DNA of 64,000 nucleotides from a virus (IMGVR_UViG_3300006753_004675:5887-69886), one strand, 5' to 3'. Positions 12,593 through 57,793 are shown, numbered from the stretch's first letter. Numbers and translations: made by a program. Notes: a model not told the origin generated them from the letters alone.

Positions 12593-13033
12593 ATGAAGGC
12601 ATATATTGCTAGTTCTTGGTTCACACCTGACGCATTTGAAGAAGTTGAAATGATTAAAAAGACTTTAACAAAGAATGAATTTGGATATTTTTCACCAAAA
12701 GATTTTTTTGTCTGTCCCCCAACAGCTGATCTTCAAACACAGAAGGATACGTTCGAAGGAAATGTCAAGCACATCCTTGGAAATGATTTTGTAATCTGTA
12801 ACACACGTGACAAAGATATGGGAAGCATCTTTGAAGCAGGAGTCGCATACAATTCAAATACGCCGCTAGTGTATTTTTGTGCAGGCCTGCCTGAAGGAGC
12901 TACGTTTAATCTCATGCTGGCACAGTCAGGTGTCAAGGTTTGCACATCTTTTGATGATCTCGATGATTATCTATCACGGTGCAAGGAGTCTGGTGAGCTT
13001 CTATTTGAACCGTATTATGGAAATATTGAATGA
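12593..13033 (+). CDS. Nucleoside 2-deoxyribosyltransferase / nucleotide N-glycosidase family
   Basis: YIASSWF, FSPK, D.GSIFEAG.A, NLML. Confidence 0.8.
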   Translation: MKAYIASSWFTPDAFEEVEMIKKTLTKNEFGYFSPKDFFVCPPTADLQTQKDTFEGNVKHILGNDFVICNTRDKDMGSIFEAGVAYNSNTPLVYFCAGLPEGATFNLMLAQSGVKVCTSFDDLDDYLSRCKESGELLFEPYYGNIE

Positions 13034-14094
13034 CAAAAAGTGGTCTAGTAAAGCTAAAGCTTGAGTATGTCTGGATAGATGGATTCAAGCCATGGGGTCT
13101 TAGGTCTAAGGTAAGGGTTCATACTTTACCTGAGTCTGATTTTTTAAAATTAAGAAATGATCTTGATCATAAGGTGTTTCCTGAGTGGGGGTTTGATGGA
13201 TCATCCACCGGCCAGGCAAGCGGATCTGATTCTGACTGCTTATTGTTACCAGTGAGAGTGGTTCCAGACGCTGTAAGAGGCGATAGCCTGGCATTCGTTG
13301 TACTGTGCGAGGTTTTGAATGGAGATGGTAGTCCCCATATTACGAATAATAGAAGTGATTTAGAGAAGATAGACGGGAAAACTCACGAATCAGAATCGTG
13401 GTTTGGAATTGAACAGGAATACACGGTTATAAAGAGTGAAAGACCTCTTGGGTTTCCAGAGGGCGGATATCCAAAGCCTCAAGGAATTTACTACTGTAGT
13501 GCTGGCGGGGATAGATCATTTGGTCGTGACATATCTGATGATCATATGAATGCGTGTCTATGGGCAGGACTGGATATAACGGGCACAAATGCTGAAGTAA
13601 TGCCTGGTCAGTGGGAATACCAAATAGGAGGTCCAGGTGTGGGTCCTGTTGATGTATCAGATCAGCTATGGATCTCTAGATGGTTCCTGCTAAAGATATC
13701 AGAAGCTTATGGACTAACAGTTACATTTGATCCAAAGCCAATGATGGGCGACTGGAATGGAGCCGGATGTCATACTAACTTTAGCACAGGGAAGATGAGA
13801 GCTCCCGGCGGAATAAAATATATAGAGCAGGCATGTAAAAAAATTGGAAACAATATACAGAAACATTTAGATGCATACGGCGATGGATTAGAGCTAAGGC
13901 TTACAGGATTGCATGAAACATGCTCGTATAAAGAGTTTAAATGGGGTGTTTCAGATAGAACAGCTAGTATTAGAATACCAAGACATGTGAACAATGATGG
14001 ATGTGGGTACCTTGAAGATCGTCGTCCCAATTCTAATTGTGACCCATACAATGTCACGCGTATTATTCTTGAAACAGTTTGTCTAGAAGATTAA
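13030..14094 (+). CDS. glnII: Glutamine synthetase type II
   Basis: EYVWIDG, WGFDGSST, WFGIEQEY, NAEVMPGQWEYQ, DWNGAGCHTNFS, RLTGLHET, YLEDRRP. Confidence 0.93.
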   Translation: MTKSGLVKLKLEYVWIDGFKPWGLRSKVRVHTLPESDFLKLRNDLDHKVFPEWGFDGSSTGQASGSDSDCLLLPVRVVPDAVRGDSLAFVVLCEVLNGDGSPHITNNRSDLEKIDGKTHESESWFGIEQEYTVIKSERPLGFPEGGYPKPQGIYYCSAGGDRSFGRDISDDHMNACLWAGLDITGTNAEVMPGQWEYQIGGPGVGPVDVSDQLWISRWFLLKISEAYGLTVTFDPKPMMGDWNGAGCHTNFSTGKMRAPGGIKYIEQACKKIGNNIQKHLDAYGDGLELRLTGLHETCSYKEFKWGVSDRTASIRIPRHVNNDGCGYLEDRRPNSNCDPYNVTRIILETVCLED

Positions 14095-14165: not shown

Positions 14166-17100
14166 ATGTCAGATTTTAATAAATTTTCTATTCCCAAACA
14201 GTTTGTTGGATTGCATGCACATGATGGTTCAAGTGTATACGATGGGCTAGGTTATCCTAACCAGCATATCGATTTTATCTTGGAGAACGGTATGAATGCA
14301 TTTGCGTTGACAAATCATGGTAACATGAATTCAGCTGCTCATGCTCACACATATTCTAAAAAATTAAAAAATAAGGGTGTAGACTATCGACACATCTATG
14401 GATGTGAATTCTACTTCGTAGATTCATTAAGCGAGTGGAGAGATGACTATGAGGAACATAGAGAAAATGTCAGGCTTAAAAAGATAAATAAGAAGAGTTT
14501 AAAAACAGATGATTCTGGCGAAGAAACAGAAGGGCTTATTATTGAGAATGAGTCTGAGTCAAAGTCATCTAAAGGAAAAAGCTATCCCGAGTGGAAGAGA
14601 AGGTATCATCTGGTTGTCGTAGCTAAAAACTTTACTGGCCTTCAAAACTTATTCAAGCTCATAAAAAAATCATTTAAATATGGATTTTACAGATTTCCTA
14701 GAATAGATTTTAAGATGCTCAAGGAGCATAGTGAAGGGCTTGTTGTATCCACAGCATGTGTTGGCGGAAGGATGTCGGGATTAATTTTTCAACACTTTCC
14801 AGATAAGTCATTTGAAGATTTAGCTCCAGAGCTCGTTGATGATCCCGTTATTTTAAACAGCGTCATGAGAAAGCTTGAAAATTCCACAGACAGATTTATT
14901 GATGCTGTAGGAAAAGAAAACTTTTTTCTTGAAATTCAATTTAATAGATTTCCCGCGCAGGATCTCACAAATAGATGTCTTCTTCGACTATCTGAAAAAA
15001 CAGGCATTCCGCTCATAGCCACAGCTGATTCACATTATTGTCATCCAGACTTATGGGAGGCTAGAGAGCTATATAGACTTCTTGGAAGAATGGGTCAAAG
15101 AGGTGATGACATGCCAGAGCTTCCTAGTAAAGAAGATTTAAAATGTGAACTCTATCCTAAAAATTCATTCCAAATGTGGGATGCCTTCAAGGATCAGTGG
15201 GAAAAATATGACTTCTATAAGGACAGTGAAGAGATTGTTAAGGATGCGATTGAAAGAACTCATGACATAGCGTGGCAGATGTGTGAAGAGGTCTGGTTTG
15301 ATTCTTCAGCAAAACTTCCAGATTTCAGCACACCAGACGTTAGCGCAATTAATCAGCTTATAAAGCTTGTCAAGAAGAGAATGATTGAGCACGGCTTGCA
15401 TGAAAATCAAGAGTATATTAGTAGAGTCACAGAAGAGCTCTCTGTGATTAAAGCGCTAGGATTCGAGAACTACTTTTTGACTCTAACAAAGGTGTTTGAA
15501 AAGGCGGGAAATAGAACACTATTGGGCCCTGGAAGAGGATCAGGAAGCGGTAGCCTTGTGAATTATATTTTGGGTATCACGCACATAGATCCTCTTGAAT
15601 ATGGCCTACTATTTGAGAGATTTTTAGGTCTTCATAAGGTTGCATGGCCAGATATAGATTCCGATGTAGCGGATAGAGATGTTCTTATTGATGTTTCTAG
15701 GGAGCTTTTTGGAGAGGATTCTGTAATTCCAGTTTCAAACTTTAATACATTGAAACTAAAGTCTCTTATAAAGGATGTCTCTAAGTTCTATGGTATTCCC
15801 TTTGATGAGGTGAACGCAATGACAAATCCTCTTGAAAGAGAGGTCCAGCCTCTCGCAATGGGAGACCATGAGGAAAAGTCGACATATATTTTGACAAATG
15901 AAGATTGTGAAAAATATAGTGAATCGTACAGGGAGTTTATGAAAAAATATCCCAAAGTACAGGAGCATGTTAAAAATCTATTCATGGAGATTAGAAGTAT
16001 TGGAAGACATGCAGGTGGCGTGCTGGTGTGCCCAAATCTTGAAGACAACATGCCTGTCATCAAGGTGAGAGGTGATCTACAAACACCGTGGTCAGAGGGC
16101 ATGAACTTTAGACATCTTGAAGAGAATGGATTTCTTAAGTTTGATTTTCTCGGACTTGCTACCCTGAAGATGGTTGAGGACACAATAAGACTAATTCTTA
16201 GAAGCCAGGGAGTTGAAAATCCTAATTTTAATCAAATCAATAAATTTTTTGATGAGAATTTAAGCAGCAGATATCACAAGCTAGATGATCAAAAGGTCTG
16301 GGAGTATATCTATCATGCAGGTAGATTTGTTCAAATTTTTCAATTTACCAACACCGGCGCTAGAAAGTTTTGCATAGCTGCCAAGCCTAGATGTATTGAA
16401 GATCTGTCTGCTATCACAGCGATTTATAGACCAGGCCCACTCACAGCTAATGTTCACAGGAAGTATGTAAAGGTGGGCCAAAATCTTAATCTTATTAAAT
16501 ATGATCATCCAGTACTAGAGGAGATTCTTTCAGAAAGTAGAGGATTTGTTATATATCAGGAACAGTTTATGCTTATAGCACAGAAGCTATCCGGATTCGA
16601 CAAGGGTGCTTCTGACAAGATGAGAAAAACACTTGTTAAGAAGTCTCTTGACCAGAATGATAAGAAGGTAGGGGAGCGCATTAAACTTAGAAAGGACTTT
16701 ATTGATGGAGCAGTAACCGTCAGCAACATGGATAGAGAAAAAGCAACATCTCTTTATGAGACAATTGAGGCTTTTTCTGGGTATGGTTTCAATAAGAGTC
16801 ACGCAGTAGCGTATGCTATAGATTCTTATTATTCTGCATGGATGCATACACATTATGAAAAGGAGTGGCTAGCTACCTGTCTTCAGACGTGGAACGGCTC
16901 TCCAAAATTTGGAAAAATTATTTCTGAAATTAAATCAATTGGGTATAAAATTCTTCAGGCAGATATTAATACATCTTCTGATGTGTGGGTATTTTCTGAA
17001 GAAAGGGGCGGGTTTGTTCCGCCGTTAACAGCTATCAAGGGTGTGGGATCTGCTGCTGTGCAAGAAATTTTAGATCGGAGGCCATTCAAAGACATCGATC

Positions 17101-17756
17101 AGCTGCTGTTTACAGAGGACGGAAAGTGGAAGCCATCTAAGATGAATAAAACTTGTTTTGATTCTCTATGTAAGGTAGAGGCTTTTGGATCTTTAGAAGA
17201 GATGACGAATGGTACGATTAAAAATCACAGACAGCTTCACGAAATTATAGTTGGAAACTATGACCTTCTCAAGAAGGGCCGCCATGGAATCACAAAGACA
17301 GCTGCAAAAAAACTAATGAAAGAAACAGGAGCAGTTCCAGACTTCATACCTGAAAAGATAAGGGAGTCTTATGATTTACCTGACTGGCAAAGATCGTCTA
17401 AGATATCATTTGGGGTTGACTTGATGTCAGGAGTAGATTCAGAGATAATATTCCCGTCATCAATAATGAAAAAGATAAATGCTGCTCAAGTCAAACCTGT
17501 AAGTTCTCTTAAGGGAAATGAAAAAGGAATAGCTTGGTTTTGCATAGAGGAGATTATAGAAAAAAAGACCAAGAACGGAAAGACATTTTATAGACTGAGG
17601 GTTTGTGACGATAATTCTAGTAGTAAGTGGGTTCGTGTCTGGAGTAAGTTTAATCAAATTCCAGAGCTGTATACAATATGGCTGGCAGAGATATCCTCTA
17701 ATGAAACATGGGGATACTCAACTTCTACATATAAGATGAAAAAGATAGATGTTTAA
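14166..17756 (+). CDS. dnaE: DNA polymerase III alpha subunit (family C)
   Basis: PHP domain (LHAH, LTNHG, DSHY), GRGSGSGS, PDIDSD, GRHAGG, LKFDFLGL, YQEQ, GFNKSHA; no intein seen. Confidence 0.95.
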   Translation: MSDFNKFSIPKQFVGLHAHDGSSVYDGLGYPNQHIDFILENGMNAFALTNHGNMNSAAHAHTYSKKLKNKGVDYRHIYGCEFYFVDSLSEWRDDYEEHRENVRLKKINKKSLKTDDSGEETEGLIIENESESKSSKGKSYPEWKRRYHLVVVAKNFTGLQNLFKLIKKSFKYGFYRFPRIDFKMLKEHSEGLVVSTACVGGRMSGLIFQHFPDKSFEDLAPELVDDPVILNSVMRKLENSTDRFIDAVGKENFFLEIQFNRFPAQDLTNRCLLRLSEKTGIPLIATADSHYCHPDLWEARELYRLLGRMGQRGDDMPELPSKEDLKCELYPKNSFQMWDAFKDQWEKYDFYKDSEEIVKDAIERTHDIAWQMCEEVWFDSSAKLPDFSTPDVSAINQLIKLVKKRMIEHGLHENQEYISRVTEELSVIKALGFENYFLTLTKVFEKAGNRTLLGPGRGSGSGSLVNYILGITHIDPLEYGLLFERFLGLHKVAWPDIDSDVADRDVLIDVSRELFGEDSVIPVSNFNTLKLKSLIKDVSKFYGIPFDEVNAMTNPLEREVQPLAMGDHEEKSTYILTNEDCEKYSESYREFMKKYPKVQEHVKNLFMEIRSIGRHAGGVLVCPNLEDNMPVIKVRGDLQTPWSEGMNFRHLEENGFLKFDFLGLATLKMVEDTIRLILRSQGVENPNFNQINKFFDENLSSRYHKLDDQKVWEYIYHAGRFVQIFQFTNTGARKFCIAAKPRCIEDLSAITAIYRPGPLTANVHRKYVKVGQNLNLIKYDHPVLEEILSESRGFVIYQEQFMLIAQKLSGFDKGASDKMRKTLVKKSLDQNDKKVGERIKLRKDFIDGAVTVSNMDREKATSLYETIEAFSGYGFNKSHAVAYAIDSYYSAWMHTHYEKEWLATCLQTWNGSPKFGKIISEIKSIGYKILQADINTSSDVWVFSEERGGFVPPLTAIKGVGSAAVQEILDRRPFKDIDQLLFTEDGKWKPSKMNKTCFDSLCKVEAFGSLEEMTNGTIKNHRQLHEIIVGNYDLLKKGRHGITKTAAKKLMKETGAVPDFIPEKIRESYDLPDWQRSSKISFGVDLMSGVDSEIIFPSSIMKKINAAQVKPVSSLKGNEKGIAWFCIEEIIEKKTKNGKTFYRLRVCDDNSSSKWVRVWSKFNQIPELYTIWLAEISSNETWGYSTSTYKMKKIDV

Positions 17757-23772: not shown

Positions 23773-24038
23773 TGAAAGTTTTTTCTGCAGAAGATATGAT
23801 TAAGATTATTGAAGGAATTCAACACGAAAACCTTGATGTTTCTATAGGAAAAGGTGATGAAAAAAGAATAATTATAAAGCCTGGCCTTAAGATAAGACAT
23901 AAAGAATCTAAATTGGTCTATACAGTGATAGCAATTTTATCTAATGATGGTGAATCTAATTTTAAGATTTTGTGCTTTAGGCCCGGTAAAAGAATACTTA
24001 TACCTAGTGAAGAATTTAAAGATTATGAGAGGCATTAA
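23772..24038 (+). CDS. Hypothetical protein (small beta-barrel-like)
   Basis: Translationally coupled on both sides. Confidence 0.55.
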   Translation: MKVFSAEDMIKIIEGIQHENLDVSIGKGDEKRIIIKPGLKIRHKESKLVYTVIAILSNDGESNFKILCFRPGKRILIPSEEFKDYERH

Positions 24039-24733
24039 TGTCAAGTTTTACGAATAAAGACCTTAAAGAAACAATAAGAAATTCTCTTCATTTAAATGAA
24101 GAAGATATTTTAAAAGAATCTTATGTAGCACAACTCAAGCAATTTAATCTTCCTACAGAGCTTTTGAGTGCAGCAAATAAGGCAAATCACATAGAGCTCT
24201 ATGAAAACTATGTAAAGGAATTCAATAGAATAAGTGCAGAGCTAGATACAGTAGATAGAGAAGCATCTAGTTCAAATCACTCTCGGTATAGATCTTTAAA
24301 GATAGATGAAACGTTTAACATGAATGCAATCTATTTGCATGAATTATATTTTTCCAATATTAGCGATCTTCATAGTGAAATTTCTATGGATTCAATTTCA
24401 TATATGAGACTAGCAAGAGATTTTGGAACATTCGATGAGTGGCAGGAAGACTTTATAGCGTGTTGCATGGCATCTAGATGCGGCTGGGCGATAACATATT
24501 TTAATGTTTATCTACAGTCATATATGAATTGTGCAATTGATCTTCATAGTCTTAATGTTCCTTTTGGATCCTACCCAGTAATAGTTATGGACATGTGGCA
24601 ACATGCATACTATAGAGATTATTTACGTGATGTAAAGACATATACGTTTGCAATGATGAAACAGCTTAACTGGAATGTCATTGGAGAGAGATTTAAAAAG
24701 GCAGAAGCCATACAATCTGTTTTGAGGTCATAA
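24038..24733 (+). CDS. Fe/Mn superoxide dismutase family protein with N-terminal leader
   Basis: H..LY..YV, N...LHELYF, GW, DMWQHAYY. Confidence 0.85.
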   Translation: MSSFTNKDLKETIRNSLHLNEEDILKESYVAQLKQFNLPTELLSAANKANHIELYENYVKEFNRISAELDTVDREASSSNHSRYRSLKIDETFNMNAIYLHELYFSNISDLHSEISMDSISYMRLARDFGTFDEWQEDFIACCMASRCGWAITYFNVYLQSYMNCAIDLHSLNVPFGSYPVIVMDMWQHAYYRDYLRDVKTYTFAMMKQLNWNVIGERFKKAEAIQSVLRS

Positions 24734-31066: not shown

Positions 31067-32368
31067 ATGAATTCGGAATCTTTTTTAAGAATTCTTATAA
31101 GAGAGATAAATCATACTCGAAAGGTGCTGCCTGAGTATGGTTCTCAGGAACACCTTGAAGAGCTAGATAGAATTTTAGATGATATTCAAAATCTAAAACA
31201 GACGCTAAAGAAGGGCCCTAATAGACACAAGAATAGAAAAGAAGTGAATCAGCTTCAAAGTGCTGTCCAGGCTCTTAGGTTTCTTAGAAGAAGAGCTCAT
31301 AAAGAAGGTATAAAGAGTGGCCTTATTAAGGAGCATCTTTATTCTAAGTTTCATTTATTTGAAGGCGGTCTCAAAGCTCCGCACTTAACAGGTCACGTGA
31401 ACCTTAATCAAGAGACAGTTGCTGCTGCCATAGATGTCTATAAAAAAGTAATGGAAATGTGGAATGAACATCTTAGTTCAGATAACATGAAGAACGTTAG
31501 TGTAATAGGGCCAGTAGGGTCTTCTGCATATTATCTTAAGGATGAACCAGGAACTGAATATGGAGATGTGGATTTTCTTGTTTCCTTTCCAGTAAAAACT
31601 GATGATACAATGGGACCTGCAGATATTAGAAAAGCAGAAAATGAAGCGAAAAGAAATTATGAAAATTCACTTAGAGATTTTCTAAACACTTCAGTTGACG
31701 TTGAAGATTATGTCAATACAGCTGCTTCAAATAAGGGATCACCGTTCTTATTGATCGTGCGGCTACCTAGCGGGGACCATGTTCAGGTGGATACAATCGT
31801 AACATACCCACAATACTCTGATCCCGGGGAAGAAGAAGAGTCTCAGTGGATGCCGTATAGATGGATTCCTGAACAAGGGTTCAAAGGATATACTATAGGA
31901 AATCTCTATATGGCACTGGGAAATTATTTTAATATGTCAATAGGTGATAGAGGAGTTACTGCTCGTGTGGTAGGTGATCAAAGAGTTTCATCTCGAAAGA
32001 CTAGTGCTGATCTTGTGATGATAAGCAAGAATATTCGAACATTTCTTAGAGACATAGCTAGAGAAGTTGCAGGAGAAGACATCGCAGAAGATGATCTATT
32101 ATTAAGATACCCTGGAGTAAATCCAGATAATATTAAAATAAGTGACCTTGCTAATGGAATAAAAGGTCTTGCACTAACATTGGGTAATTTAGAAATTATA
32201 AATTCTCCTAAAGTAATGCTAGATTCTGTATTTGAATCATACAAGGAGGGTCTTCAAAGAAATGTTAAAAGTAAGCTTTCGAAAGGTCTTGATAAAGAAA
32301 GTCATAACAAGCTTTTAAATTTAAATGATAAAGTTTTAGGCATAGTAAAATCAGTATTTGAGTCGTAA
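31067..32368 (+). CDS. Pol-beta superfamily nucleotidyltransferase with N-terminal pro-region
   Basis: GPVGSS...YGDVD, QVD, G.KG...GNLY; FLRILIRE leader and LFE-GG site. Confidence 0.6.
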   Translation: MNSESFLRILIREINHTRKVLPEYGSQEHLEELDRILDDIQNLKQTLKKGPNRHKNRKEVNQLQSAVQALRFLRRRAHKEGIKSGLIKEHLYSKFHLFEGGLKAPHLTGHVNLNQETVAAAIDVYKKVMEMWNEHLSSDNMKNVSVIGPVGSSAYYLKDEPGTEYGDVDFLVSFPVKTDDTMGPADIRKAENEAKRNYENSLRDFLNTSVDVEDYVNTAASNKGSPFLLIVRLPSGDHVQVDTIVTYPQYSDPGEEEESQWMPYRWIPEQGFKGYTIGNLYMALGNYFNMSIGDRGVTARVVGDQRVSSRKTSADLVMISKNIRTFLRDIAREVAGEDIAEDDLLLRYPGVNPDNIKISDLANGIKGLALTLGNLEIINSPKVMLDSVFESYKEGLQRNVKSKLSKGLDKESHNKLLNLNDKVLGIVKSVFES

Positions 32369-32376
32369 TATAAACA

Positions 32377-33015
32377 ATGGATTTTTTCACATCAGATCTA
32401 CATTTTGGTCATTTTAATGTAATTAAGTGGTGCAATAGACCTTTTTCATCTGTTGATGAGATGAATGAGGAACTTATAAAAAGATGGAATGAGACCGTAA
32501 AAGATACAGACACAGTGTATGTTGTTGGGGATATGTGTCTATGTAGATCTAATATCGCGGAAACCTATGTTAAAAGATTGAATGGGTATAAGATATTAAT
32601 AAAGGGAAATCATGATCGAGGAGAAAAAACAATGCTCAAAATGGGATTCGATGAATTTCATAAAAAACTTACGTATGAGATGCCAGACGGAAGAAGAGCA
32701 TTGATTCAGCATAGGCCCGTTTCCAAATGTCTAATAGGGGATCATGATCTTTTAATTCATGGTCACATACACATAACAGAGAATTTTAAAGATAGAGTTA
32801 ATGTTAGCTGTGATATGTGGGATTTTAAACCCGTTTCTATAGAAGAGATTACGATCTTAGGCCTTGATAAAATTAATGACATTGATGCAGTAGACATTTC
32901 TTTTGACGGCAATAGAGTTATTATAAATGCAGATATCACAACTGAAAATTTTTCTGGTGTGGTAGATCATATTTATACTCAGATAATTGATATCTGGCCT
33001 GGAGGCAAAAAGTGA
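32377..33015 (+). CDS. Calcineurin-like metallophosphoesterase
   Basis: TSDLHFGH, RPF, VGD, GNHD, HGHIH, NVSCD. Confidence 0.85.
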   Translation: MDFFTSDLHFGHFNVIKWCNRPFSSVDEMNEELIKRWNETVKDTDTVYVVGDMCLCRSNIAETYVKRLNGYKILIKGNHDRGEKTMLKMGFDEFHKKLTYEMPDGRRALIQHRPVSKCLIGDHDLLIHGHIHITENFKDRVNVSCDMWDFKPVSIEEITILGLDKINDIDAVDISFDGNRVIINADITTENFSGVVDHIYTQIIDIWPGGKK

Positions 33016-33746
33016 AGATAGGAATTTTTGCAGGGGGCTTTAAACCTTTCCACACAGGTCACTTTGGAAAGGTTGCTCTTGCTCTTGAGGAAAATGATAA
33101 AGTATATCTTTTTTATGGTGTCCAGAGTGAGAAAGCTAAAAACCCCACTATGAGAAAGATAGGCTCCAGAGAATTTACGCCCAGAATGTCAAAGAGAATC
33201 TTTGACATTATTAAGCCTGCTCTTGAGAGAGAGTATGGAGATAGAATACGAGTTTTTGATGTGCATAGGCCAGTTGGCGCTGTCGTAGACAAGATACGCC
33301 AATTAAAGGACGACCCATTAGAAAAGCTCAAGGTGTATGGAAGAATCGAAGACTTGAGAAGATACTATATCAACAATAGGCACCTAATGAGAGACGTGCA
33401 AGATCTTTATGATAGCGGCGTGCTAGAGTTTGGAACCATATCCCCAAATGAATCAGAGGGGCTATCTGCAGAGGAGCTTTCAGATCTTGAAGTAGATAGA
33501 ATTTCAAAAGCATTGAGTGGAACCTATCCAGAAGCATCTGACGAGGAATTAAGAGATTATTCTGGTGTAAGTGCTACGGCAGTTAGAAACATGATAGATT
33601 CTAAAGATGTAGACGCCTTAAAGAGATATCTTCCTAACTTTTTATCTTCTGAGGAAGAGGATCAAATAATAGACGTGCTTTTAGAAAGAGATGTGCAGGC
33701 AGAAGCATATCTCAGATACTTAATACGTGGAATCATTAGAGGATAA
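33012..33746 (+). CDS. HIGH-family nucleotidyltransferase (cytidyltransferase/NMNAT-like)
   Basis: GGFKPFHTGH, VSATAVR; C-term YLRYLIRGII motif. Confidence 0.7.
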   Translation: MKIGIFAGGFKPFHTGHFGKVALALEENDKVYLFYGVQSEKAKNPTMRKIGSREFTPRMSKRIFDIIKPALEREYGDRIRVFDVHRPVGAVVDKIRQLKDDPLEKLKVYGRIEDLRRYYINNRHLMRDVQDLYDSGVLEFGTISPNESEGLSAEELSDLEVDRISKALSGTYPEASDEELRDYSGVSATAVRNMIDSKDVDALKRYLPNFLSSEEEDQIIDVLLERDVQAEAYLRYLIRGIIRG

Positions 33747-33747
33747 G

Positions 33748-36700
33748 ATGGCCATATTACCAGTTCATAAGCAATACATCTCAGTAGCTGCAAAAATTGT
33801 CGCAGAACAGATAGCTTCTAAGAGCGATGGGCCTGGCTCAGAGTCACACATATATAATATCTATGAACAGCTAGGAATGCCACTCTCTGACATAGAAGAG
33901 ATAATGGACGCAGCTCTTGCAGGGCGGCTAGAGAATGTTCAGGAAAAGGTTGACGGACAGAATATCACGTTCACAGTTGTCAACGGTGTTGTTCAATTTT
34001 TCTCCAAGATGGATCTCAATGATCAAAGGAGCAGAGATCGTGCAAGAGATAGGATATTAAGAGGAGATGGAGCGACACCAGACGATATAGCTAGAAAATA
34101 TACAGATGATAAAGGAATGGGTGCACTAAGGGAGACGTATACAATGGCATATGAAGCGCTCACTCCAATAGCGTCAAAATATTCAGATTCTTTATTTCAA
34201 AATGGAAACGTTGTAGTTGTTTCATCTTTGGCAACTCCTAGAAATCCCAATACTATTTTGTATGAGGAGGATAATTTTATTTTTATAAAGCCTATAGCTC
34301 TTCAAGAGGGAACATTTGTTGATGAGTCTGCATACTCGAATTTTTTAAGCGACGCAGAAAAAGAAAAAGAAAGCGTTTTCAATATGAGCAGTGTTCCCAC
34401 AGCAAAGCTGATAAAGGAGCTTGAAGAGGATGACGATAAAATCGAAGAGCTCAAGTCAGACTTTAGAGATGTGGTAGGTGAAGCAGGTCTTTCTGTTGGT
34501 TCAGATACTGTTGGTGATTATGTTCTTGAAAGAGTTGAGGATCTAATATATTCTAAGTATAAGTTTATACCTGATGATATGGTAAGGCCTGTTGCTCTTA
34601 GATTTGTTACAGGGAGGGGTGCTGTTGCAAATGCTCTTAAAAAATCTATTTCTTCAGATGACTATAGGAAGTATCAAGATCTGGATAAAAGAAAGTCACA
34701 GATAGTAGATGAGGCAATAATTCCTCTTGAAGAGATAGTACAGCGGCTAGGAGTTATGGTTGCCGACAGGCTTGATCTTGCACTAAGGGCAACAAACTCT
34801 AATGAATTATTATCTCTAGTAAAAACAGTACGATCTGAATTTGAAAGAGGCGCTAGCTTTATTGATAATAGCATGGATCCACAAAAGGCAAAGCGTGTCT
34901 CTGAGGGTATCAGGGTCGCTCTTGAAAGATTGAAGTCAAATGAAGATCTCTTTAGAACTGCAACTGAGGGCATAGTCTTTACATGGAAGGATGGAAAGAC
35001 ATATAAGCTCACTGGTTTATTCACACCCATTAATAAGCTAAGAGGATTTTTTGCATATAGTGGAGCACAATCACCTTCCCATCCAGAGACATCTGAGAGT
35101 GAAACAGTTAGAGAGAGGGTTCGGAGAAGATGGAAAAAGCATCAGCTAGTAGAAGGTGGGTCGGCATTTAAAGATTCCTCTGGTAGTGTTCTTACAAGAA
35201 AGGAAAGGATACCTAGAAGAGATGTAGATATAATATTGAAGTCATTTGAAGATGAGGTTCTTAAACCTCTTGGAATTAATTACATGCCAGTAGGAAGTAC
35301 GGCCACCAACACAGGTGCTGTGGGTGACATAGACATCGCTGTTGACATAGCTTCAAGAAATGTTCTTGCAGATGTTCTAATGGGCCACATAGATAGGGAA
35401 AAGGTTAAAAAATTACCTGGATTGGTTGCAGTGATGTTTAAGGTGCCGGACTCAGATCCTGAGGAGTTTGTTCAGATCGACGTGGTTCCAAGCTCTAATA
35501 TATCAGACACACAGTGGCTAATGATGGGGGCACAAGAAGGCGGGGTAAAGGGTGTTTATAGAAATCTTCTTTTAGCCTACCTGGCAAAGACTAAAAGCGA
35601 CAAAGAGTCTAGTACACTTCAGTCTGTTAAATATACGATAACATTTCCTGGCGGGCTATTAAAGAAGGTAAATGGGTCTGCTATTGGAGAAAGAGAACAT
35701 GATCCCGACGTATTCCTGCCAGTTCTTGGATTTCCTAAAGATCTATCAAAGGATAATATTGAAAGCTTTGAGCAGCTAGTTGACTATATGAGGGGAGATC
35801 CTAGCATGTCAACAATCCTGCCAGGGTTCAAGGACTATATTGATAATAATAGGTATTTAAGGAACTCAAACAAGATGATAAGTGATGAGGCTAAAATGGC
35901 CGCAGATTATATAGATGAAAAATCACTAATGGAATCCATGATAAAAAAGAGAATCACGGAGCTACTGACAGAAGCAGAACAGTTTTCGCTGCCAGGTATT
36001 CTATCAGATCCCGAGCCTGGATCATCGGTGTCAAGGATCGATCACGCGTGGCTAAACGCTCACGCCGTAACAGATCCGCTATATACAGGTGGAAATGGAG
36101 AGGGAGGAGTTTTACATCCAGCCGGGTTCAGCGGTCTAGCTCTTGGAATAAGAGAAAGCACTCAGCGAAACGATGGCGAGAGATTTGAAGATGGAATGGT
36201 CGGATATGCTGACGAGCTGGTAGAGCTGGGTGGGTATAATGCAGTCCCCCTTAAGAGAGAGGGGCTTCCTGGAACAGATTTATCACAGCTTGTAGAGAAG
36301 GGTGGAAAGGGAAGGACCTACGAGCTTAAGAAGTCAACACAGAATTCTCCGAATCTTATGCTCAATGCATCATTCCCAAAATCAGATCCAAATCACTATT
36401 ATGTTTTTGTTGTAAATCTTCCAAATCTCCAGATTATGACGCGTGCGTGGGAACAGCTAGAGTCACAATCAGGCGGTGATTTAAATAAAGCATGGGCTGA
36501 CTTAGAGGCAGAGGTTCAGAAAAGAGTAGACGTAGATCGTGAATTAACATTCTTTATAAACGATAGCAAAGCAAGAGATTCGGCTGCAGATGAGATTGAG
36601 TCTGGTGAAATTAATCCCGATTCAGAATCTTCAGCTCTGGTGGTTCCCTTGGGGGTAATGTCATCAGCTCAGCGATTTATAAAGATGTACGAAGCATACG

Positions 36701-37206
36701 GAGAGTTAAATAATATTTCGAAAGAAGATGCACTTGATTACATGAAATCAAAGACGGGAAAAATTACATCTGGCTCTCTGAAAGGTGTAAGAACTGAGCT
36801 TAGGGCACAATACAGCGAGACTAAGTCGGGAGCAGCCGCCGGAACCCGAGGCGAATTATTCAAGAACGTTTTAGGAAATGTAAAGTTATGGGTTGTTCCA
36901 AGTAGAGATCTTAGGATCGAGATACTAAGCTCGAATGAAGCACTACGATCTGCAATTGATATGGAGACGGGTGAGCTTATTAAAGGCGGAAGGGAGGTGA
37001 TTGCAGCAGCACTAAGGAGTGAGCTTACAAATCTTAAAATAGAGGATAAGATAGTTGAAAAGATTGCGCCACTAGTAGAGGATCAGGTGCTAGACGGTGT
37101 ATCTCCATCTCAGTCCAAAGAAGACAAAGACCCAGCATTTGATATTAGACTTGGACTATTAAAGGTTAGGATAAGCCTAAAGATAGAGCCTCCAAAGGGT
37201 GTGTGA
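33748..37206 (+). CDS. Multidomain protein: ATP-dependent ligase-like + pol-beta nucleotidyltransferase + possible PD-(D/E)xK nuclease
   Basis: QEKVDGQN/EGIVF/YKLTG; VGS...GDID/QID/GVKG; TDL...YELKKS; domains separated by LVE-GG and LLTE-A motifs. Confidence 0.6.
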   Translation: MAILPVHKQYISVAAKIVAEQIASKSDGPGSESHIYNIYEQLGMPLSDIEEIMDAALAGRLENVQEKVDGQNITFTVVNGVVQFFSKMDLNDQRSRDRARDRILRGDGATPDDIARKYTDDKGMGALRETYTMAYEALTPIASKYSDSLFQNGNVVVVSSLATPRNPNTILYEEDNFIFIKPIALQEGTFVDESAYSNFLSDAEKEKESVFNMSSVPTAKLIKELEEDDDKIEELKSDFRDVVGEAGLSVGSDTVGDYVLERVEDLIYSKYKFIPDDMVRPVALRFVTGRGAVANALKKSISSDDYRKYQDLDKRKSQIVDEAIIPLEEIVQRLGVMVADRLDLALRATNSNELLSLVKTVRSEFERGASFIDNSMDPQKAKRVSEGIRVALERLKSNEDLFRTATEGIVFTWKDGKTYKLTGLFTPINKLRGFFAYSGAQSPSHPETSESETVRERVRRRWKKHQLVEGGSAFKDSSGSVLTRKERIPRRDVDIILKSFEDEVLKPLGINYMPVGSTATNTGAVGDIDIAVDIASRNVLADVLMGHIDREKVKKLPGLVAVMFKVPDSDPEEFVQIDVVPSSNISDTQWLMMGAQEGGVKGVYRNLLLAYLAKTKSDKESSTLQSVKYTITFPGGLLKKVNGSAIGEREHDPDVFLPVLGFPKDLSKDNIESFEQLVDYMRGDPSMSTILPGFKDYIDNNRYLRNSNKMISDEAKMAADYIDEKSLMESMIKKRITELLTEAEQFSLPGILSDPEPGSSVSRIDHAWLNAHAVTDPLYTGGNGEGGVLHPAGFSGLALGIRESTQRNDGERFEDGMVGYADELVELGGYNAVPLKREGLPGTDLSQLVEKGGKGRTYELKKSTQNSPNLMLNASFPKSDPNHYYVFVVNLPNLQIMTRAWEQLESQSGGDLNKAWADLEAEVQKRVDVDRELTFFINDSKARDSAADEIESGEINPDSESSALVVPLGVMSSAQRFIKMYEAYGELNNISKEDALDYMKSKTGKITSGSLKGVRTELRAQYSETKSGAAAGTRGELFKNVLGNVKLWVVPSRDLRIEILSSNEALRSAIDMETGELIKGGREVIAAALRSELTNLKIEDKIVEKIAPLVEDQVLDGVSPSQSKEDKDPAFDIRLGLLKVRISLKIEPPKGV

Positions 37207-37487
37207 TAGATATGGACTCACATGACAAATCAATAATTATTGAGTGCACAAACTTTGTTTCAAGCTATTCTGGTGACTGCGATGACTGGGTTACAATTAA
37301 AAAACAAATAATGCTCAATCTCGCACCCAGGCTCAGAAGAAATTTTTCTACAAGGGATTCTAAAACTAAAGAGCAATGTCTTAATGATTTTGAGAAGGAG
37401 CTGATTAATTATTATAGAGATGCGACTGGCATAGAGCTAGTCCTAAGATCTCTTGATGAGAGAAGAGAACTATTTGATGTCCTATAG
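37203..37487 (+). CDS. Hypothetical protein
   Basis: GTGA overlap with the upstream gene. Confidence 0.55.
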   Translation: MIDMDSHDKSIIIECTNFVSSYSGDCDDWVTIKKQIMLNLAPRLRRNFSTRDSKTKEQCLNDFEKELINYYRDATGIELVLRSLDERRELFDVL

Positions 37488-38385
37488 CAACGAAATACTT
37501 TTGAGAGAGTTTGTAAAAGACAGTCTTAGAGTAGATAATAGCTCACTATTGTTAGAGAAATTGCAATCAGTTTATACAACCACAGATCAAGCTATTGATG
37601 CAGAGAGGGGAGCGCTACAAAGTCGTGAAGATGTATATGGAATCTGGGGGCGACGAGCTGAGGGGATCCTGGGATGGCTCGGAGCAACCGCAGGAATGAT
37701 GGCGTTGTGGGAGGCTTTATTTGGAACATCTGCAACAGCACGACGAAAAGGGCGTGCTGGACTTCTATGGGCACAGGGAGACCTACAGGGCTCTGCTAAA
37801 GGTGCTTCAATTGGAAACTTTCTCAAATCATTTTTCCTTGGTAATATTAGAAATCCTGCTAGAAAGATAGGAGACATGTTTCCTTCTGTGAGAAGATTTC
37901 TATCTCGGGGCTCATCAGTAAACGAGTCTTATTCTATGATTAATGAGGGAGGGCTCTGGGATTTTGTAAAGAGAGCTACCGCACGCGGCGCTAGCAATGT
38001 TAGAGATGCTGGTGTAGAAGGCATGGGTGAAGAAGACTTTGTTAATCTTATTTCAGCTGTTGCAACTGACTTAGAGTCTATTGCAGATAGCATCGATGAG
38101 ATAGCAGCTAATGAAGATATAATATCTATGATGCAGGAGTGGTCTGACTTTATTGGAGCGACATTCTCGTCTGCTGAAACATCAAGCGGACTCTCACACG
38201 TGATAGAGATGGTAGGGGGCGAAGACGTCGTAACAGAACACTTCTATAGTGAGATTATGAAACCATTTATTTCTTATCAGATCGACGTCTTGGGAAACCA
38301 ATTGATGGATATAGGGCTATCAGGGGAGCAGAAAGAATTAATTGAAGGCATTTTTTCTGAAGCATCGACCTCTGTATCACGGTAA
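37477..38385 (+). CDS. Hypothetical protein with leader, hydrophobic segment and INE-GG site
   Basis: LLREFVKDSL, LLLE, INEGG. Confidence 0.6.
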   Translation: MSYSNEILLREFVKDSLRVDNSSLLLEKLQSVYTTTDQAIDAERGALQSREDVYGIWGRRAEGILGWLGATAGMMALWEALFGTSATARRKGRAGLLWAQGDLQGSAKGASIGNFLKSFFLGNIRNPARKIGDMFPSVRRFLSRGSSVNESYSMINEGGLWDFVKRATARGASNVRDAGVEGMGEEDFVNLISAVATDLESIADSIDEIAANEDIISMMQEWSDFIGATFSSAETSSGLSHVIEMVGGEDVVTEHFYSEIMKPFISYQIDVLGNQLMDIGLSGEQKELIEGIFSEASTSVSR

Positions 38386-39950: not shown

Positions 39951-41736
<1,786 letters not shown>

Positions 41737-42795: not shown

Positions 42796-43560
42796 TTGAA
42801 AAGCTCAATTGATGCTTATTTTAAAGATGTTGGCAGAACTTCACTGCTTACTAGAGAACAAGAGGTCTCTCTTTCTAAGAGAATTGAAAAAGGAGATCTC
42901 GTAGCTAGAAGTGTTATGATTGAATCAAATCTTCGTCTTGCAATAAGCATAGCGAAAAGATACTATAAGAGCGGATGCTCTATGGAGGATTTAATCCAAG
43001 AATCAAATATTGGCCTAATTAAGGCAGTTGAAAAATTTGATTGGAGAAGAGGGTTCAAGTTTTCAACATACGCTAGCTGGTGGATCAAGCAGTCTGTGTG
43101 TCGTCACATCAGCTCTCATAGAAACACTGTAAAGGTTCCAGCTCACACAAATAGTCTATCTCTTAAAATATCGAGACTAAGAGATGAGTACAAGAAGGAA
43201 TTTAGACAAGAGCCTAGTATATCTGAAATATCTGAAATCTTGAGCGTTACAGAAAATATGGTCAAGGCCAGCTTAAGCTCTATTAAGTTTCAAAATATAC
43301 TATCTGTAGACGGAGCGATGGGCAGAGGTGATAATAGTAGAACTATCTTAGAAACCATTGCAGATGATGACTTTCCAGATCTTGATGAAATGATTGATAG
43401 GGAAAAGATGGTTAAGGTGATATCATCATCGCTATCACGCCTTACAAAGAGAGAAGAACAGGTTATGAGGCTTAGATTTGGTCTTTGTGAAATAGATGAT
43501 GAAGAAGAGTTTGTCTTGGATGAAGAAGAATTAGGAATCATTTTAAAGGGAGCACTATAA
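42796..43560 (+). CDS. RpoD/SigA-family sigma factor lacking regions 1.1 and 4.2
   Basis: LLTREQE, NLRLAISIAKRY, DLIQESNIGLIKAVEKFD, KFSTYASWWIKQ, RE..V.RLRFGL then stop; AGGAG RBS, TTG start. Confidence 0.9.
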   Translation: MKSSIDAYFKDVGRTSLLTREQEVSLSKRIEKGDLVARSVMIESNLRLAISIAKRYYKSGCSMEDLIQESNIGLIKAVEKFDWRRGFKFSTYASWWIKQSVCRHISSHRNTVKVPAHTNSLSLKISRLRDEYKKEFRQEPSISEISEILSVTENMVKASLSSIKFQNILSVDGAMGRGDNSRTILETIADDDFPDLDEMIDREKMVKVISSSLSRLTKREEQVMRLRFGLCEIDDEEEFVLDEEELGIILKGAL

Positions 43561-53438: not shown

Positions 53439-55307
53439 ATGTCAAAAGTTATAGGAATTGATTTAGGAACTACAAATTCTGCTGTTTCAGTTATGGAATC
53501 AGGAGGAGCAAAAGTTATTAATAATGAGGAGGGTGCAAGAACAACGCCTTCTGTTGTTGCATACACTAGGGAGGGAGACAGATTAGTTGGTGTTACAGCC
53601 AGACGACAAGCTATCACAAATCCTGAAGATACAGTGTATTCTGTCAAGAGGTTTATGGGAATGAAGATGAATGATGTAAAGAGTGAATCTGAAAAAGTTC
53701 CATATAAGGTCGTTACAAGCAAGGGTGGGATGTGCAAAATATCTGTAGGGGGAAAGAAACTTTCACCTCAAGAGATTAGTGCACAAATTCTTATCAAGCT
53801 TAAAAGAGATGCTGAAAGATATCTGGGACATGAAGTTAGTGATGCAGTCATCACTGTTCCTGCATACTTTAATGACGCACAGCGACAGGCAACAAAGGAT
53901 GCCGGCAAGATTGCTGGGCTAGAAGTCAAACGGATTATCAATGAGCCAACAGCAGCAGCACTAGCGTATGGTCTAGATAAGACTGATGAGCAGAAGGTTG
54001 CTGTGTATGACCTTGGCGGAGGAACATTCGATATATCAATTCTCGATATATCTGATGGTGTTGTAGAGGTTATGAGCACTAATGGAGATACTCATCTCGG
54101 TGGTGATGATGTTGATCAAATAATCATGGATTGGATGCTATCTGAGTTTAAGAGCAACACTGGAATAGATGTGGGATCTGATACCATGGTTCTTCAAAGA
54201 GTGAAGGATGCTGCTGAAAAGGCAAAGATCGAGCTATCAAGCACACAGAAGACAGATGTTAATCTTCCATTTCTCACAGCAGACTCATCTGGACCAAAGC
54301 ATTTAGCTCTCACACTTACTCGTGCGAAGTTTGAGCAGATGATCGAGTCTTTTGTAAAGAGCACACTGACACCGGTGAAGAACGCTCTAAAGGACGCTGG
54401 ACTTAAGCCTTCAGATATCGATGATGTAATTCTTGTTGGTGGTTCTACTAGAACACCCTCAGTGAGAGATGCAGTCGAGAAATACTTTGGAAAGAGTGCA
54501 AATTCATCTGTCAACCCAGATGAAGTCGTCGCGATGGGAGCAGCTGTTCAAGGTGGAGTCTTTTCAGGAGATGTGAATGATATCTTGCTCTTAGATGTCA
54601 CTCCGCTTTCTTTGGGAATCGAGACGCTGGGCGGCGTATGTACGAGGCTTATTAATAGAAATACTACCATCCCGTGCTCAAAGAGCGAGGTATTTTCTAC
54701 AGCAGCGGATAATCAGCTTGCAGTTGACATACACGTGCTTCAGGGTGAAAGAGAGTTTGCATCTGACAATCGGACTCTGGGACAGTTTCAGTTAACTGAA
54801 ATTCCCCCAGCACCAAGAGGTATGCCTCAAGTAGAAGTCACATTTGATATTGATGCTAACGGAATTGTCAGTGTTTCTGCAAAGGATAAGGCTACCGGAA
54901 AGGAGCAATCTATTACAATCACTGCCGGCGAGACATTGACAGATGAAGAAGTTAGCGAGATGGTGGAAAATGCTAAATCTCACGAAGAGGAAGATAGACT
55001 TCGAAGAAAGATGATAGAGTCTAAAAACAAGCTAGATTCTATGGTATATCAGTCCAAAAAGATTGTAAGTGAGCATGGCGAAAATCTCTCAGATGAGACA
55101 AAGACTGAGCTTAATAGCAAGTTAGAAGATGCAACAAGCGCGCTTTTATCTGATGATATCACGTCTATTGATAGCGCATACTCATCTCTTGAGTCAGTAC
55201 TTCATGCAGCTGGAGCAGAGATGTATAGCACATCTCAAGAGCCTTCTCAGACAGCTGATGAGAATGACGATATCATCGATGCCGAATATCAAGAGGCATC
55301 TCCTTGA
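53439..55307 (+). CDS. dnaK: Chaperone DnaK (Hsp70)
   Basis: [50 protein letters not shown]. Confidence 0.97.
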
Positions 55308-56674: not shown

Positions 56675-56713
56675 TCGCAAGCGTAATAGTTATACATGAA
56701 TGGAGATCCACCA

Positions 56714-57793
56714 ATGAGAATTAAAGAAAGTCAGCTACGATTATTAATAAGAAGAGAGCTTATTAGAGAGTCTAATAGGCGGAGGCGGGCCCTAAGAGAG
56801 CAGGCTGATGCCGCAGAAGAGTTTGAGGTTGCCGCCCGAGACATGGATGATGACTTTAATTTTGATGAAGAGGAGGCGGCAATAAGAGCATCAGACCCCG
56901 GTGAGCTGGTGCTGGCTGACAACATAAAGGATTACGTTCAGGTACAGTTTGGGAATGCTAGAGACGGAACTCCAGAGGAAAGGCAGGACGCAGATAGAAT
57001 TCTTTCAACAGTTGCTGTGGTCCACATTAATAACATAGCTAAGTATCGCAGCAGAGATCAGGGAATAATCAGAACCTGGAAAGAGACGATTGAAGACACG
57101 AGGGGTGGTGGATACCCAGTGTCTCTGGCAGCCCTAGCTGCTCCATCGACACCTGAGCAGCGACAACAGCTAGCTAGAGGAGAATCTGTCTATGAGTATC
57201 CACACGACAGGAAGTGGGAGTACACGGTCAAGGATGAAATGTGGCATACTAGAAAGAAGGGAACTGATGGAAGGTGGATCTCTCTATCAGCTACAAAATT
57301 TGCAAAATCTCGAGGAAATCTAGATAAGGAATTTCCAGACGCAAGAGAGGCAGATGAATCTGGAGAGGCCGGTCTGGTGCGATCCGCGGCTTCTCAAGAG
57401 GCTTCCAGGCTCGCCGCTCTCGCACTCGCCAAATCTGAGGAATCCAGCGACGACGAGGCACAGATCGACGACGAGGAAGCCGCCGCGGAAGGTCAATCGG
57501 AATACGAGGTGGGGGATGTGGTGGCCACCTTCCTCTACGGTGATAGGAGGGACTGGGAGAAAATAGAGGACACAACGGGCAAGGGCAAGGGTAGAGCGGG
57601 ATGGACACACGACGCCGAAATAGTCGGCAATGAGGGGACACCATTTTCAAGAGTCACTATATGGGATGATGATACTGTGGAATTTATGGATGAAGATGGA
57701 AGAACCGAGGTATCAACAACCTCAGGATCGGAAGACACACTATTGCCAACATACAGCGAGATTGAGACAGGGGCGACTTCGACCTGGCGATGA
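56714..57793 (+). CDS. Acidic hypothetical protein with leader; GC-rich internal segment
   Basis: MRIKESQLRLLIRRELIRE leader. Confidence 0.65.
   Translation: MRIKESQLRLLIRRELIRESNRRRRALREQADAAEEFEVAARDMDDDFNFDEEEAAIRASDPGELVLADNIKDYVQVQFGNARDGTPEERQDADRILSTVAVVHINNIAKYRSRDQGIIRTWKETIEDTRGGGYPVSLAALAAPSTPEQRQQLARGESVYEYPHDRKWEYTVKDEMWHTRKKGTDGRWISLSATKFAKSRGNLDKEFPDAREADESGEAGLVRSAASQEASRLAALALAKSEESSDDEAQIDDEEAAAEGQSEYEVGDVVATFLYGDRRDWEKIEDTTGKGKGRAGWTHDAEIVGNEGTPFSRVTIWDDDTVEFMDEDGRTEVSTTSGSEDTLLPTYSEIETGATSTWR

Follow-up and report, generated by a model that had tools for sequence, protein, structure and literature searches.

The stretch analyzed here, IMGVR_UViG_3300006753_004675:5887-69886 (64,000 nucleotides; hereafter the window), comes from a viral contig of 69,886 bp with ~37% G+C and nearly all genes on the + strand. 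It contains an open reading frame (ORF), 33748..37206 (+), made up of a ligase-like module (LIG), a nucleotidyltransferase-like module (NT) and a C-terminal module (C), which are joined through copies of a short helical tag. We see about an even chance, judging from the sequence, that this chain is bounded by a T4-style tag for both addressing and cutting and that it is packaged and cut by a head protease.

We imagine the chain as end-repair enzymes arranged like beads on a string, with an RNA-ligase-type sealer, a Pol X-type gap-filler or tailer and a PD-(D/E)xK nuclease; in relatives, a HIGH-motif nucleotidyltransferase would form a fourth module at the N terminus. Each module would be bounded by a portable amphipathic helix of ~15-20 residues ending in [L/I/M]-x-E. 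This helix may be an enlarged version of the T4 capsid-targeting propeptide, addressing the protein to the prohead core, and a gp21-type head protease would cut after its glutamate, at E27, E476 and E749. These cuts would release the ligase, polymerase and nuclease separately, for carriage inside the capsid and delivery into the host together with the DNA, as a repair kit ready for use.

Searches with the whole protein gave no matches in PDB (phmmer), PHROGs, NCBIfam or PADLOC, and tblastn against 50,697 phage records gave one, in uncultured LR756508, at 25% identity and in the ligase only. The literature searched, which left most subscription journals outside its coverage, dealt with T4 capsid targeting, head proteolysis in giant phages and polyvalent proteins; neither the tag nor a ligase-PolX-nuclease chain was described in it.

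Tags at the joints of the chain

Residue numbers are those of P0001, the 1159-aa translation of a single open frame, 33727..37206 (+), from GTG 33727; numbering from ATG 33748 is lower by 7. The ATG form, of 1152 aa, matches a public gene call (P0004) at 100% identity. Conservation was read from an alignment of P0001 with 39 of 45 database relatives, the identical P0004 and five near-duplicates being left out.

An earlier note on this DNA, made from the sequence, had described the ORF as a polyprotein with VRERVRRRWKKHQLVE-GG and MESMIKKRITELLTE-A as cleavage motifs between its domains. Both strings are present, and both joints share one conserved amphipathic helix of ~15 residues, E-x-x-[LIF]-[RK]-x-x-[IV]-[RK]-x-x-[LI]-L-x-E, in the 15-18 residues before E476 and E749. 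At the first joint (tag 1, ETVRERVRRRWKKHQLVE, 35101..35154, +, residues 459-476), the terminal glutamate is found in 39/39 rows having a residue there, and G477, G478, A480 and F481 after it are near-invariant; at the second (tag 2, MESMIKKRITELLTE, 35926..35973, +, residues 734-749), it is found in 36 of 37. The proposed cuts lie after E476 (codon 35152) and E749 (codon 35971). The pattern is seen, for example, in LKESLKKIIMKMLSE/GG and ENNLRLAIRQMLHE/I, the slash here and below marking a known or proposed cut. The chain has a leader of its own at the N terminus, MAILPVHKQYISVAAKIVAE/Q (33748..33807, +, residues 8-27), which the structure model shows as an isolated helix of low confidence. 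The hydrophobic-x-Glu endings, IVAE/Q at the N terminus and LVE/GG and LTE/A at the joints, are conserved in relatives.

The same motif recurs well beyond these joints, and the earlier proposal of a tag ending in [LIM]-x-E is borne out as a real and portable element, with hits at boundaries, in leaders and at split genes. A hidden Markov model (HMM) of the motif gave 94 matches of at least 2 bits in 187 related proteins, 88 of them at module boundaries or linkers, 6 at C termini and none inside a recognized domain; a match was counted as at a boundary if it did not fall in the interior of a domain envelope, so that regions of unknown fold are included. Thirty-two of the 94 matches are in proteins that were not used to train the motif. 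In P0133, a LIG module with a 501-aa tail, residues 654-689 carry tandem tags, EIKLRKAIRKIITE/NKKKELNEEQRLRKVIRRMLTE/A. We also considered the tag as a DNA-level recombination repeat and set this aside, the protein motif being degenerate.

That the modules are independent, as had been supposed, is supported by the AlphaFold model of the full-length protein, made with the 40-sequence alignment. Its mean predicted local distance difference test score (pLDDT) is 78.5 and the domain blocks reach 80-96, with a predicted TM score (pTM) of just 0.44 and with stretches below 50 at residues 1-17, 26-39, 452-478 and 749-768. The tag helices, at residues 15-32 (pLDDT 46-49), 459-472 (39-45) and 734-752 (55-59), are the least confident helices of the model and border on disorder.

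Enzyme modules and their shuffling

LIG (33838..35076, +, residues ~38-450) is predicted to be an ATP-dependent RNA-ligase-type adenylyltransferase with a large helical insert. The ligase-like call of the earlier note stands, since K74-x-D76-G77, E414-G-x-V-F and K427 are invariant or nearly so in the 40 sequences. E73 is likewise nearly invariant there, beside the K-x-D-G of motif I, and in a 26-sequence ligase alignment E66, K67, D69 and G70 are invariant. Farther along, E414, G415, V417, F418, T425, K427, L428, T429 and G430 are invariant in the 40 sequences; they include distal E-G-h-V-h and K-x-K elements, which we take to be motifs IV and V. The window's protein missed the gathering score of Pfam RNA_ligase (PF09414) at 12.6-15.3 bits against a cut-off of 27, 19 of 26 homologues gave weak matches to it (best E 3.7e-5), and hhalign against T4 Rnl2 returned a probability of 6%. 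By structure (VIA-align, residues 38-440), the rows were NgrRnl (5cot, Z 7.6, 183 residues), T4 Rnl2 (2hvq, Z 7.5, 178 residues), 1s68 (Z 7.1), Trl1 (6n0t, Z 7.0) and T4 Rnl1 (9do4, Z 6.7); every row is an RNA ligase, yet all have Z below the tool's noise guide of 8. BFVD listed phage RNA ligases at E 1e-4 to 1e-3. Searches of PDB sequences with the LIG and NT profiles returned spurious PPR or coiled-coil rows only.

NT (35155..35925, +, residues 477-733) starts GGSAFK and is predicted to have a family-X polymerase-like palm and thumb, so that the earlier nucleotidyltransferase (NTase) call was right and can be sharpened. Foldseek with residues 472-691 gave 187 matches at E <= 1e-3, the top 50 all Pol lambda or Pol beta and the best Pol lambda 4fo6 (E 2.3e-5, probability 1.0). 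The ten best VIA-align rows are likewise all family X (Z 10.8-8.7, 160-187 residues): Pol beta 3k75_D leads at Z 10.8 (root mean square deviation [rmsd] 4.7, 187 aligned), with Thermus PolX 3au2 at 10.7, terminal deoxynucleotidyltransferase at 9.8, Pol mu at 9.6, Pol lambda at 9.3 and PolX of African swine fever virus (ASFV; 5hr9, chain of 176) at 8.7 with 160 aligned. Other NTases reach Z 7.7 at most, and palm-only rows align about 95-105 residues. The family-X alignment starts at residues 472-490, directly past the tag, and thus there is no room for an N-terminal 8-kDa domain. G523, T525, G533, D534, D536, Q583 and D585 are near-invariant in the 40 sequences, as G47, S48, D58, D60, Q107 and D109 are invariant in the stand-alone NT homologues; from their position, rather than from a residue-level superposition, D534, D536 and D585 are the likely Pol X carboxylate triad. 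Membership in a sequence family was not found: Pfam DNA_pol_B_palm matched 1 of 18 NT homologues, at E 0.046. P0172 matches NTP_transf_2 at E 0.038, and in one Atlas cluster PF01909 was assigned to 33% of the proteins.

C (35974..37203, +, residues 750-1159; residue numbers are C-domain numbering + 749) is here of type A and comprises a linker, an alpha/beta core that is PD-(D/E)xK-like, an inserted helical bundle and, at the C-terminal end, a small subdomain found also on its own (P0145). The TDL...YELKKS string on which the nuclease call had been based is present, and E821, D851, E866, K868 and K869 are near-invariant in 18 sequences, in keeping with a PD-(D/E)xK motif. The motif thus backs the call, while the fold matches are weak. 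Folded alone, the module gave pLDDT 79.4 and pTM 0.72; its core matched RecU (1y1o, Z 5.6), Hjc (2wcw, Z 5.3, rmsd 3.1, 89 aligned), 1gef (Z 5.1), NhoI (Z 4.9) and HinP1I (Z 4.9), all below the noise guide, and the top Foldseek rows were PvuII (E 0.47), DpnI and EcoRV, at E 0.47-1.6. Most rows of the module's fold match list are accounted for by the four-helix-bundle insert, and an Atlas look-up gave leads under 0.9 only.

The three-domain account given earlier was incomplete, lacking the chain's own N-terminal leader and a fourth module, X0, which in this contig is a separate ORF (33012..33746, +). X0 is adenylyl/cytidylyltransferase-like, with a HIGH motif (GGFKPFHTGH) and weak matches to Pfam CTP_transf_like and NCBIfam NMNAT/cyt_tran_rel, all under their cut-offs. 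It ends in a copy of the tag, EAYLRYLIRGIIRG, which makes up its final 14 residues (33702..33743). X0 is fused to the ligase N terminus in L001, L002, L003, L005 and L010, and in P0016, P0035, P0053 and others; the two are split in this contig and at eight other loci. The split here consists of TAA (33744-33746), one base and ATG 33748. A programmed frameshift between the two ORFs was rejected, as this stop-base-ATG arrangement is conserved in at least five relatives (L004 and L006-L009) and elsewhere there is a clean fusion.

Shuffling of this kind is general among the relatives, and the earlier idea that domains are swapped as cassettes and also occur as separate ORFs held up well. An exhaustive HMMER search reported 786 relatives, of which 150 are listed, and 187 proteins were classified with local HMMs, with the caution that some short entries may be contig-end fragments. 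We found at least 20 architectures, and the modules also occur alone. LIG alone is the most common (47 of 187), with NT alone in 20 and type A C modules (CA) alone in 2. LIG-NT-CA, the architecture of ORF 33748..37206, accounts for 14, LIG-NT-CB, which has another C module, for 22, LIG-NT for 11, NT-CA for 3, X0-LIG for 8, X0-LIG-NT for 2 and X0-LIG-NT-CB for 3. Parts of unassigned type (?) give LIG-? (26), ?-LIG (8), LIG-NT-? (6), X0-LIG-NT-? (3), NT-? (3) and LIG-?-NT-CB (2), and the single cases include NT-LIG-?, LIG-X0-?, LIG-CB and NT-CB. In at least 22 relatives, type A is replaced by other C modules.

Gene splits coincide with tags, and the tag stays on either neighbor. X0 alone in relatives ends in ...SENTLRRAIRAMIMVG; the stand-alone ligase of L011-L014 starts MMIRQLIREMLMLE/NGPEAHILNFYED (/NGPE), and the stand-alone NT module of the same loci starts MGG and ends in ...LREAVRRALRSL; a stand-alone C module, P0089, starts MRITEKHLRKFIRGQLME/DYQ. 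Among 22 stand-alone NT proteins, 16 start M-G-G, at the point at which the chain reads E/G-G, and in 4 others GG comes after a short leader with E as its last residue. Once the initiator methionine is removed, the stand-alone forms and a cut chain would have a free Gly-Gly end in common.

In L014, a frame at 12343..12537 ending MRITESQLRKIVREEYR-stop abuts the ATG of the stand-alone NT gene (12537..13340, MGGEAFKG), and L012 and L013 have in its place a leader protein of 72-73 aa ending ...EEYR; the leader seems to have split off from the NT module in L012-L014.

Taken together, these patterns contradict the idea of an ordinary fixed multidomain enzyme with junction helices that are alike by chance and belong to the flanking domains. 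Amphipathic helices are certainly common, and the window's two tags score just 1.8 and 3.6 bits. Against this, the modules occur in so many arrangements and alone, the tag accompanies either neighbor, none of the motif matches lies inside a domain and the model has low confidence at the tags. We regard a fixed enzyme as highly improbable.

Tagged leaders and the head protease

The tag is a lineage-wide leader, found at the N termini, joints and some C termini of many unrelated proteins. It heads orthologues of ORF 24734 (MRSLRNEIRKIILE/Q, MEINKKMIRRLILE/Q), the orthologue family of ORF 41783, and small ORFs (MRITESQLRRIVREEA); in more distant contigs, a protein of ~100 aa adjoining the ligase starts MKEDLLREAIRKEIRKMLKE/GP (13.5 bits). 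By eye, about 10-13 of the 95 contig genes (>10%) have such a leader. Of 19 leader-bearing and head-module proteins compared with PHROGs, 17 matched no family.

Several leader-bearing genes of the window lie apart from the chain. A DnaQ/RNase T-type exonuclease (7200..8045; phrog_192, 'DNA polymerase exonuclease subunit', E 1.8e-19) has a leader-like start, MIITKRALRSLISDIVLRE/S. An Fe/Mn superoxide dismutase homologue (24038..24733) matches Pfam from residue 124 only, and its extension, starting MSSFTNKDLKETIRNSLHLNE, is leader-like by eye. Two proteins of unknown family have clear leaders, MRIKESQLRLLIRRELIRE/S in 56696..57793 (8.8 bits with the leader HMM) and ...ISIRSIIQDFIYE/N in 58080..58823, and a trypsin-like peptidase gene (58816..59541) comes next after them.

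So wide a distribution could also mean that the tag is some other sorting or regulatory signal, such as a ClpP degron, a handle for DnaK or GroEL, or an address for a membrane or phage compartment, with [LIM]-x-E incidental. Homologues of ClpP, GroEL and DnaK are indeed encoded in the window, degrons and membrane-targeting helices can, like the tag, sit at either terminus, and a signal carried by more than a tenth of the genes would fit such a role. A terminal degron or membrane anchor, however, leaves the internal copies at every joint unexplained, and the polar face of the tag helix is of mixed charge, with no extended hydrophobic run in the helix. Moreover, no protease family other than that of the head protease was found linked with the clade, and one homologue of NT is virion associated (see below). 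We therefore think a signal of this sort rather improbable.

One connection of the tag with a head protease is the gene content of relatives. Of the close-relative records searched, 2 of 5 have a gp21-type prohead protease (PF03420, E 1e-26) and a gp23-type capsid protein (PF07068, E 5e-68); of the tag-bearing records searched that are more distant, 4 of 5 have PF03420 as well. The two close records are of 115 and 118 kb with a CheckV completeness of 37-38%, and therefore the whole genome should be roughly 300 kb. Nearest to the relatives' capsid protein among isolates are those of Microcystis phage Mel-JY01 and Flavobacterium phage immuto, along with huge uncultured phages. Given this protease, the capsid protein and its nearest isolates, the source phage is, by predicted gene content, a large, distant relative of T4. 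In L043 and L051, a tail-fibre-like gene and a TerL-portal-protease block flank an X0-ligase fusion and a leader protein, with all of these on one strand.

According to the available part of PMC9026906, cleavage by gp21 and its homologues in giant phages follows a short motif and falls on the C-terminal side of Glu. In T4, by the same account, the capsid-targeting sequence is a propeptide of 10 residues; the first 10 of IPIII are enough for targeting to the capsid, with positions 4 and 7 used in targeting and 8 and 10 in processing, and Alt is processed at both ends. The N termini of T4 gp24 (MAKINELLRE/S), gp22 (MLKEQLIAE/A) and gp21 (MNEPQLLIE/TW) resemble the tag endings in style, and the relatives' protease itself starts MNNSDMKLLTE/WT. 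The cleavage site of T4 gp23 could not be placed on the relatives' capsid protein by MAFFT; local alignment put it at LLRE/S, as a positional guess only.

Experimental information on virions comes from Atu_ph07, a 490-kb Agrobacterium jumbo phage with a T4 core, a protein of which was listed by Foldseek against viral models. The NT profile has a single match in its genome (E 1.2e-13), AUZ94877.1, of 277 aa, starting MGGRAFDG and with a computed mass of 32.16 kDa. In the electrospray ionization tandem mass spectrometry table of Atu_ph07 virions (Table S5 of PMC6102473, in the part available), gp65 is given as 32,16 kDa with 10 unique peptides and 36.8% coverage. Because the masses match exactly, we identify AUZ94877.1 as gp65; computed masses of eight neighbors also match the rows for gp60-64 and gp67-69 to the second decimal in the rows available. 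Directly upstream, gp66 is RNA-ligase-like (Pfam E 0.002, under the cut-off), so that the order from LIG to NT would be the same as in the chain; the ligase profile itself had no match in Atu_ph07, and the label of gp66 comes from that weak Pfam match only. The NT module can thus be virion associated in a giant phage with a T4 core, a result that does not by itself bear out the function of the tag.

In the same genome (L084, 47215..50592), virion proteins of ~30 kDa are encoded one after another, including at least gp56-gp64 by the available rows of Table S5. The starts of gp60-63, MRWDQLTE, MKWHQLTE, MRWHQLIE and MRLFQLLE, share an eight-residue pattern, M-[RK]-[WL]-x-Q-L-x-E, like a short T4-style capsid-targeting propeptide; the available portion of PMC6102473 makes no mention of this.

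A number of results weigh against packaging and cutting. No head or tail genes were found on the 69,886-bp contig, the protease being known from relatives only, and the cluster is surrounded by genes for metabolism and replication; copies of the T4 late-promoter word TATAAATA number 5, with 6.1 expected, and so show no enrichment. As for Atu_ph07, gp65 lacks the tag, the available rows of the virion table do not include gp66, and the virions had been purified with polyethylene glycol only (PMC6102473, in the part available). Stand-alone proteins, which need no cut, can end in the tag too, and there it often reads ...h-h-x-G-stop instead of L-x-E. A DnaQ-like exonuclease with a leader would be odd cargo for a capsid. 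Small head-module proteins of G001 and G002 scored 3.1, 2.0 and 0.6 bits with the leader HMM, within shuffle noise (95th percentile 4.5), and their likeness to the tag is by eye only, so that we do not count them as tag bearing; the 16-kb T4 head region gave no match to the tag HMM. Finally, the motif is enriched over shuffled proteins, with 16 matches of at least 0 bits against 6.8 +/- 2.5 and 0 of 200 shuffles reaching 16, but this is a weak control since shuffling destroys any helix.

Some of these same observations suit a multi-enzyme repair complex in the cytoplasm, with the tags as linker or docking helices that would hold modules together or bring separately encoded ones to one another or to a shared hub; the chain would then never be cut or packaged. 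Split genes put tags at the C terminus of one module and the N terminus of the next, as in a docking pair, in a cluster set among replication and metabolism genes; a replisome-type exonuclease bears the leader; and fusion of the ligase and the HIGH-motif NTase in both orders (P0126, P0169) points to a functional partnership. Docking does less well with the presence of the same leader on many small unrelated proteins without a link to repair, and the near-invariant terminal glutamate, with a hydrophobic residue two or three places before it, has no obvious docking role. Nor does the model show packing of the tag helices, its least confident parts, on each other or on the domains. The proposed cut point also matches a natural N terminus, and stand-alone NT modules that start exactly at M-G-G suit an N terminus that is free. 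On balance, we find a docking complex unlikely, if worth keeping in mind. Even as a docking or sorting helix, the tag would be a conserved signal marking module boundaries in hundreds of unannotated phage proteins.

Returning to packaging and cutting, we consider, from the gene sequences, that the chain is probably loaded into the capsid and then cut apart. A broader proposal is more tentative, a little short of evenly balanced: a large marine T4-related clade may use one portable helical address of ~18 residues (E-x-x-L-R-x-x-I-R-x-x-L-x-E) to load at least a tenth of its gene products, including polyprotein enzyme pathways, with the head protease cutting every tag, the repair kit being injected and the tags serving as break-points for shuffling.

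Neighboring genes and known systems

Gene order around the ORF is kept in the close IMG/VR relatives L001-L010. Upstream, ORF 31067..32368 (+) encodes an NT paralogue with a leader of its own, MNSESFLRILIRE, an N-terminal region of ~85 residues and then HLFE/GG; the L010 orthologue reads EENRLRKAIRMIAE/GGLKAP. The earlier note had likened this junction to that before NT, and the string is there, although the NTase is only a distant paralogue (hhalign probability 62.6%, E 7e-5). A second such comparison, with ORF 37453..38385, fared less well: MINE-GG is present, but neither a preceding tag helix nor a following NTase was found within the tests made. Between the paralogue and X0 lies a metallophosphoesterase (32377..33015, +; Pfam Metallophos E 2.1e-5), conserved beside the cluster in 5 related loci and with a weak NCBIfam match to ligase-associated PdeM (E 1.3e-4, under the cut-off). 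The ligase resembles RNA ligases, the polymerase resembles DNA gap-fillers and the metallophosphoesterase beside them is weakly PdeM-like; we would guess at a role in repair of DNA ends or RNA-DNA hybrids.

Farther away, the contig encodes ribonucleotide reductase and, in adjoining genes at 2818..5607, malate synthase (Pfam E 1e-110) and isocitrate lyase (E 2e-100), which together would give this phage a whole glyoxylate shunt. A Pol III alpha-type replicase (14166..17756), GroEL (40141..41736), DnaK (53439..55307), a sigma-70 factor (42796..43560) and ClpP (1177..1839) make up a cell-like housekeeping set for a T4-related phage. The halves of a dUTPase_2 domain lie in adjoining ORFs in permuted order (profile 108-162 in 9050..9514 and 1-90 in 9755..10690), the latter ORF fusing its part to a 5'-nucleotidase domain.

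How does the chain compare with known systems? T4 internal proteins and Alt likewise have a short N-terminal amphipathic propeptide with a hydrophobic-x-Glu end on unrelated cargo, and the T4 capsid-targeting sequence goes with a protease of the Peptidase_S77 family, present here in relatives. The tag differs in its length (15-20 residues, compared to 10 in T4), in its own consensus and in its occurrence at every module joint and at C termini; the cargo would be large enzymes in one chain, and the system is known here from genes alone. Whether the chain is a variant of this capsid-targeting and cargo theme seems to us about as probable as its being something else.

As a set of activities, the chain recalls bacterial LigD-type end joining and the Pol X and ligase of ASFV, in which a small Pol X-type or gap-filling polymerase works with an ATP-dependent ligase and end-cleaning enzymes. 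The ligase here, in contrast, resembles Rnl2, Rnl5 and Rnl1 rather than DNA ligases (VIA-align), and to our knowledge those repair sets have no modular tag system. Closer in gene order is the gp66-gp65 pair of Atu_ph07, an RNA-ligase-like gene directly upstream of an NT homologue that is virion associated; unlike the chain, these are two separate genes without a helical tag, gp65 starting MGG and gp66 being undetected in virions within the rows available.

In phiKZ, 201phi2-1 and SPN3US, a gp21-related protease processes many virion and ejection proteins by cutting on the C-terminal side of Glu, in some of them at more than one site; these phages belong to other lineages with another motif, and no repeated helical tag between modules is described for them in the available part of PMC9026906. 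Polyvalent proteins, like the chain, have many effector domains per polypeptide and variable architectures, and they are predicted to be delivered with the DNA and are sometimes processed by peptidases (Iyer et al. 2017, PMC5512222, in the part available). They differ in having their own MPTase-type peptidase, or MuF or portal fusions, whereas the chain has joint tags for a separate head protease, as we imagine it; Pfam found no MPTase, MuF or portal domain in P0001 or in 18 relatives of varied architecture, a search that divergent versions could escape. The available text of PMC5512222 also states that no association of the 2H phosphoesterase domains of polyvalent proteins with RNA ligases had been observed.

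If the capsid reading is right, the 10-residue propeptide that T4 uses for a few internal proteins would have been scaled up in uncultured ocean phages into modular delivery of large enzymes, with protease-cut joints that double as points of evolutionary recombination. Injected proteins of metagenomic phages could then be predicted by a rule read from sequence, and foreign proteins could be loaded into capsids with a portable tag of natural origin. For the phages themselves, it would suggest nucleic acid repair at entry as a form of counter-defense, with phage DNA ends or host-cleaved RNA as the target.

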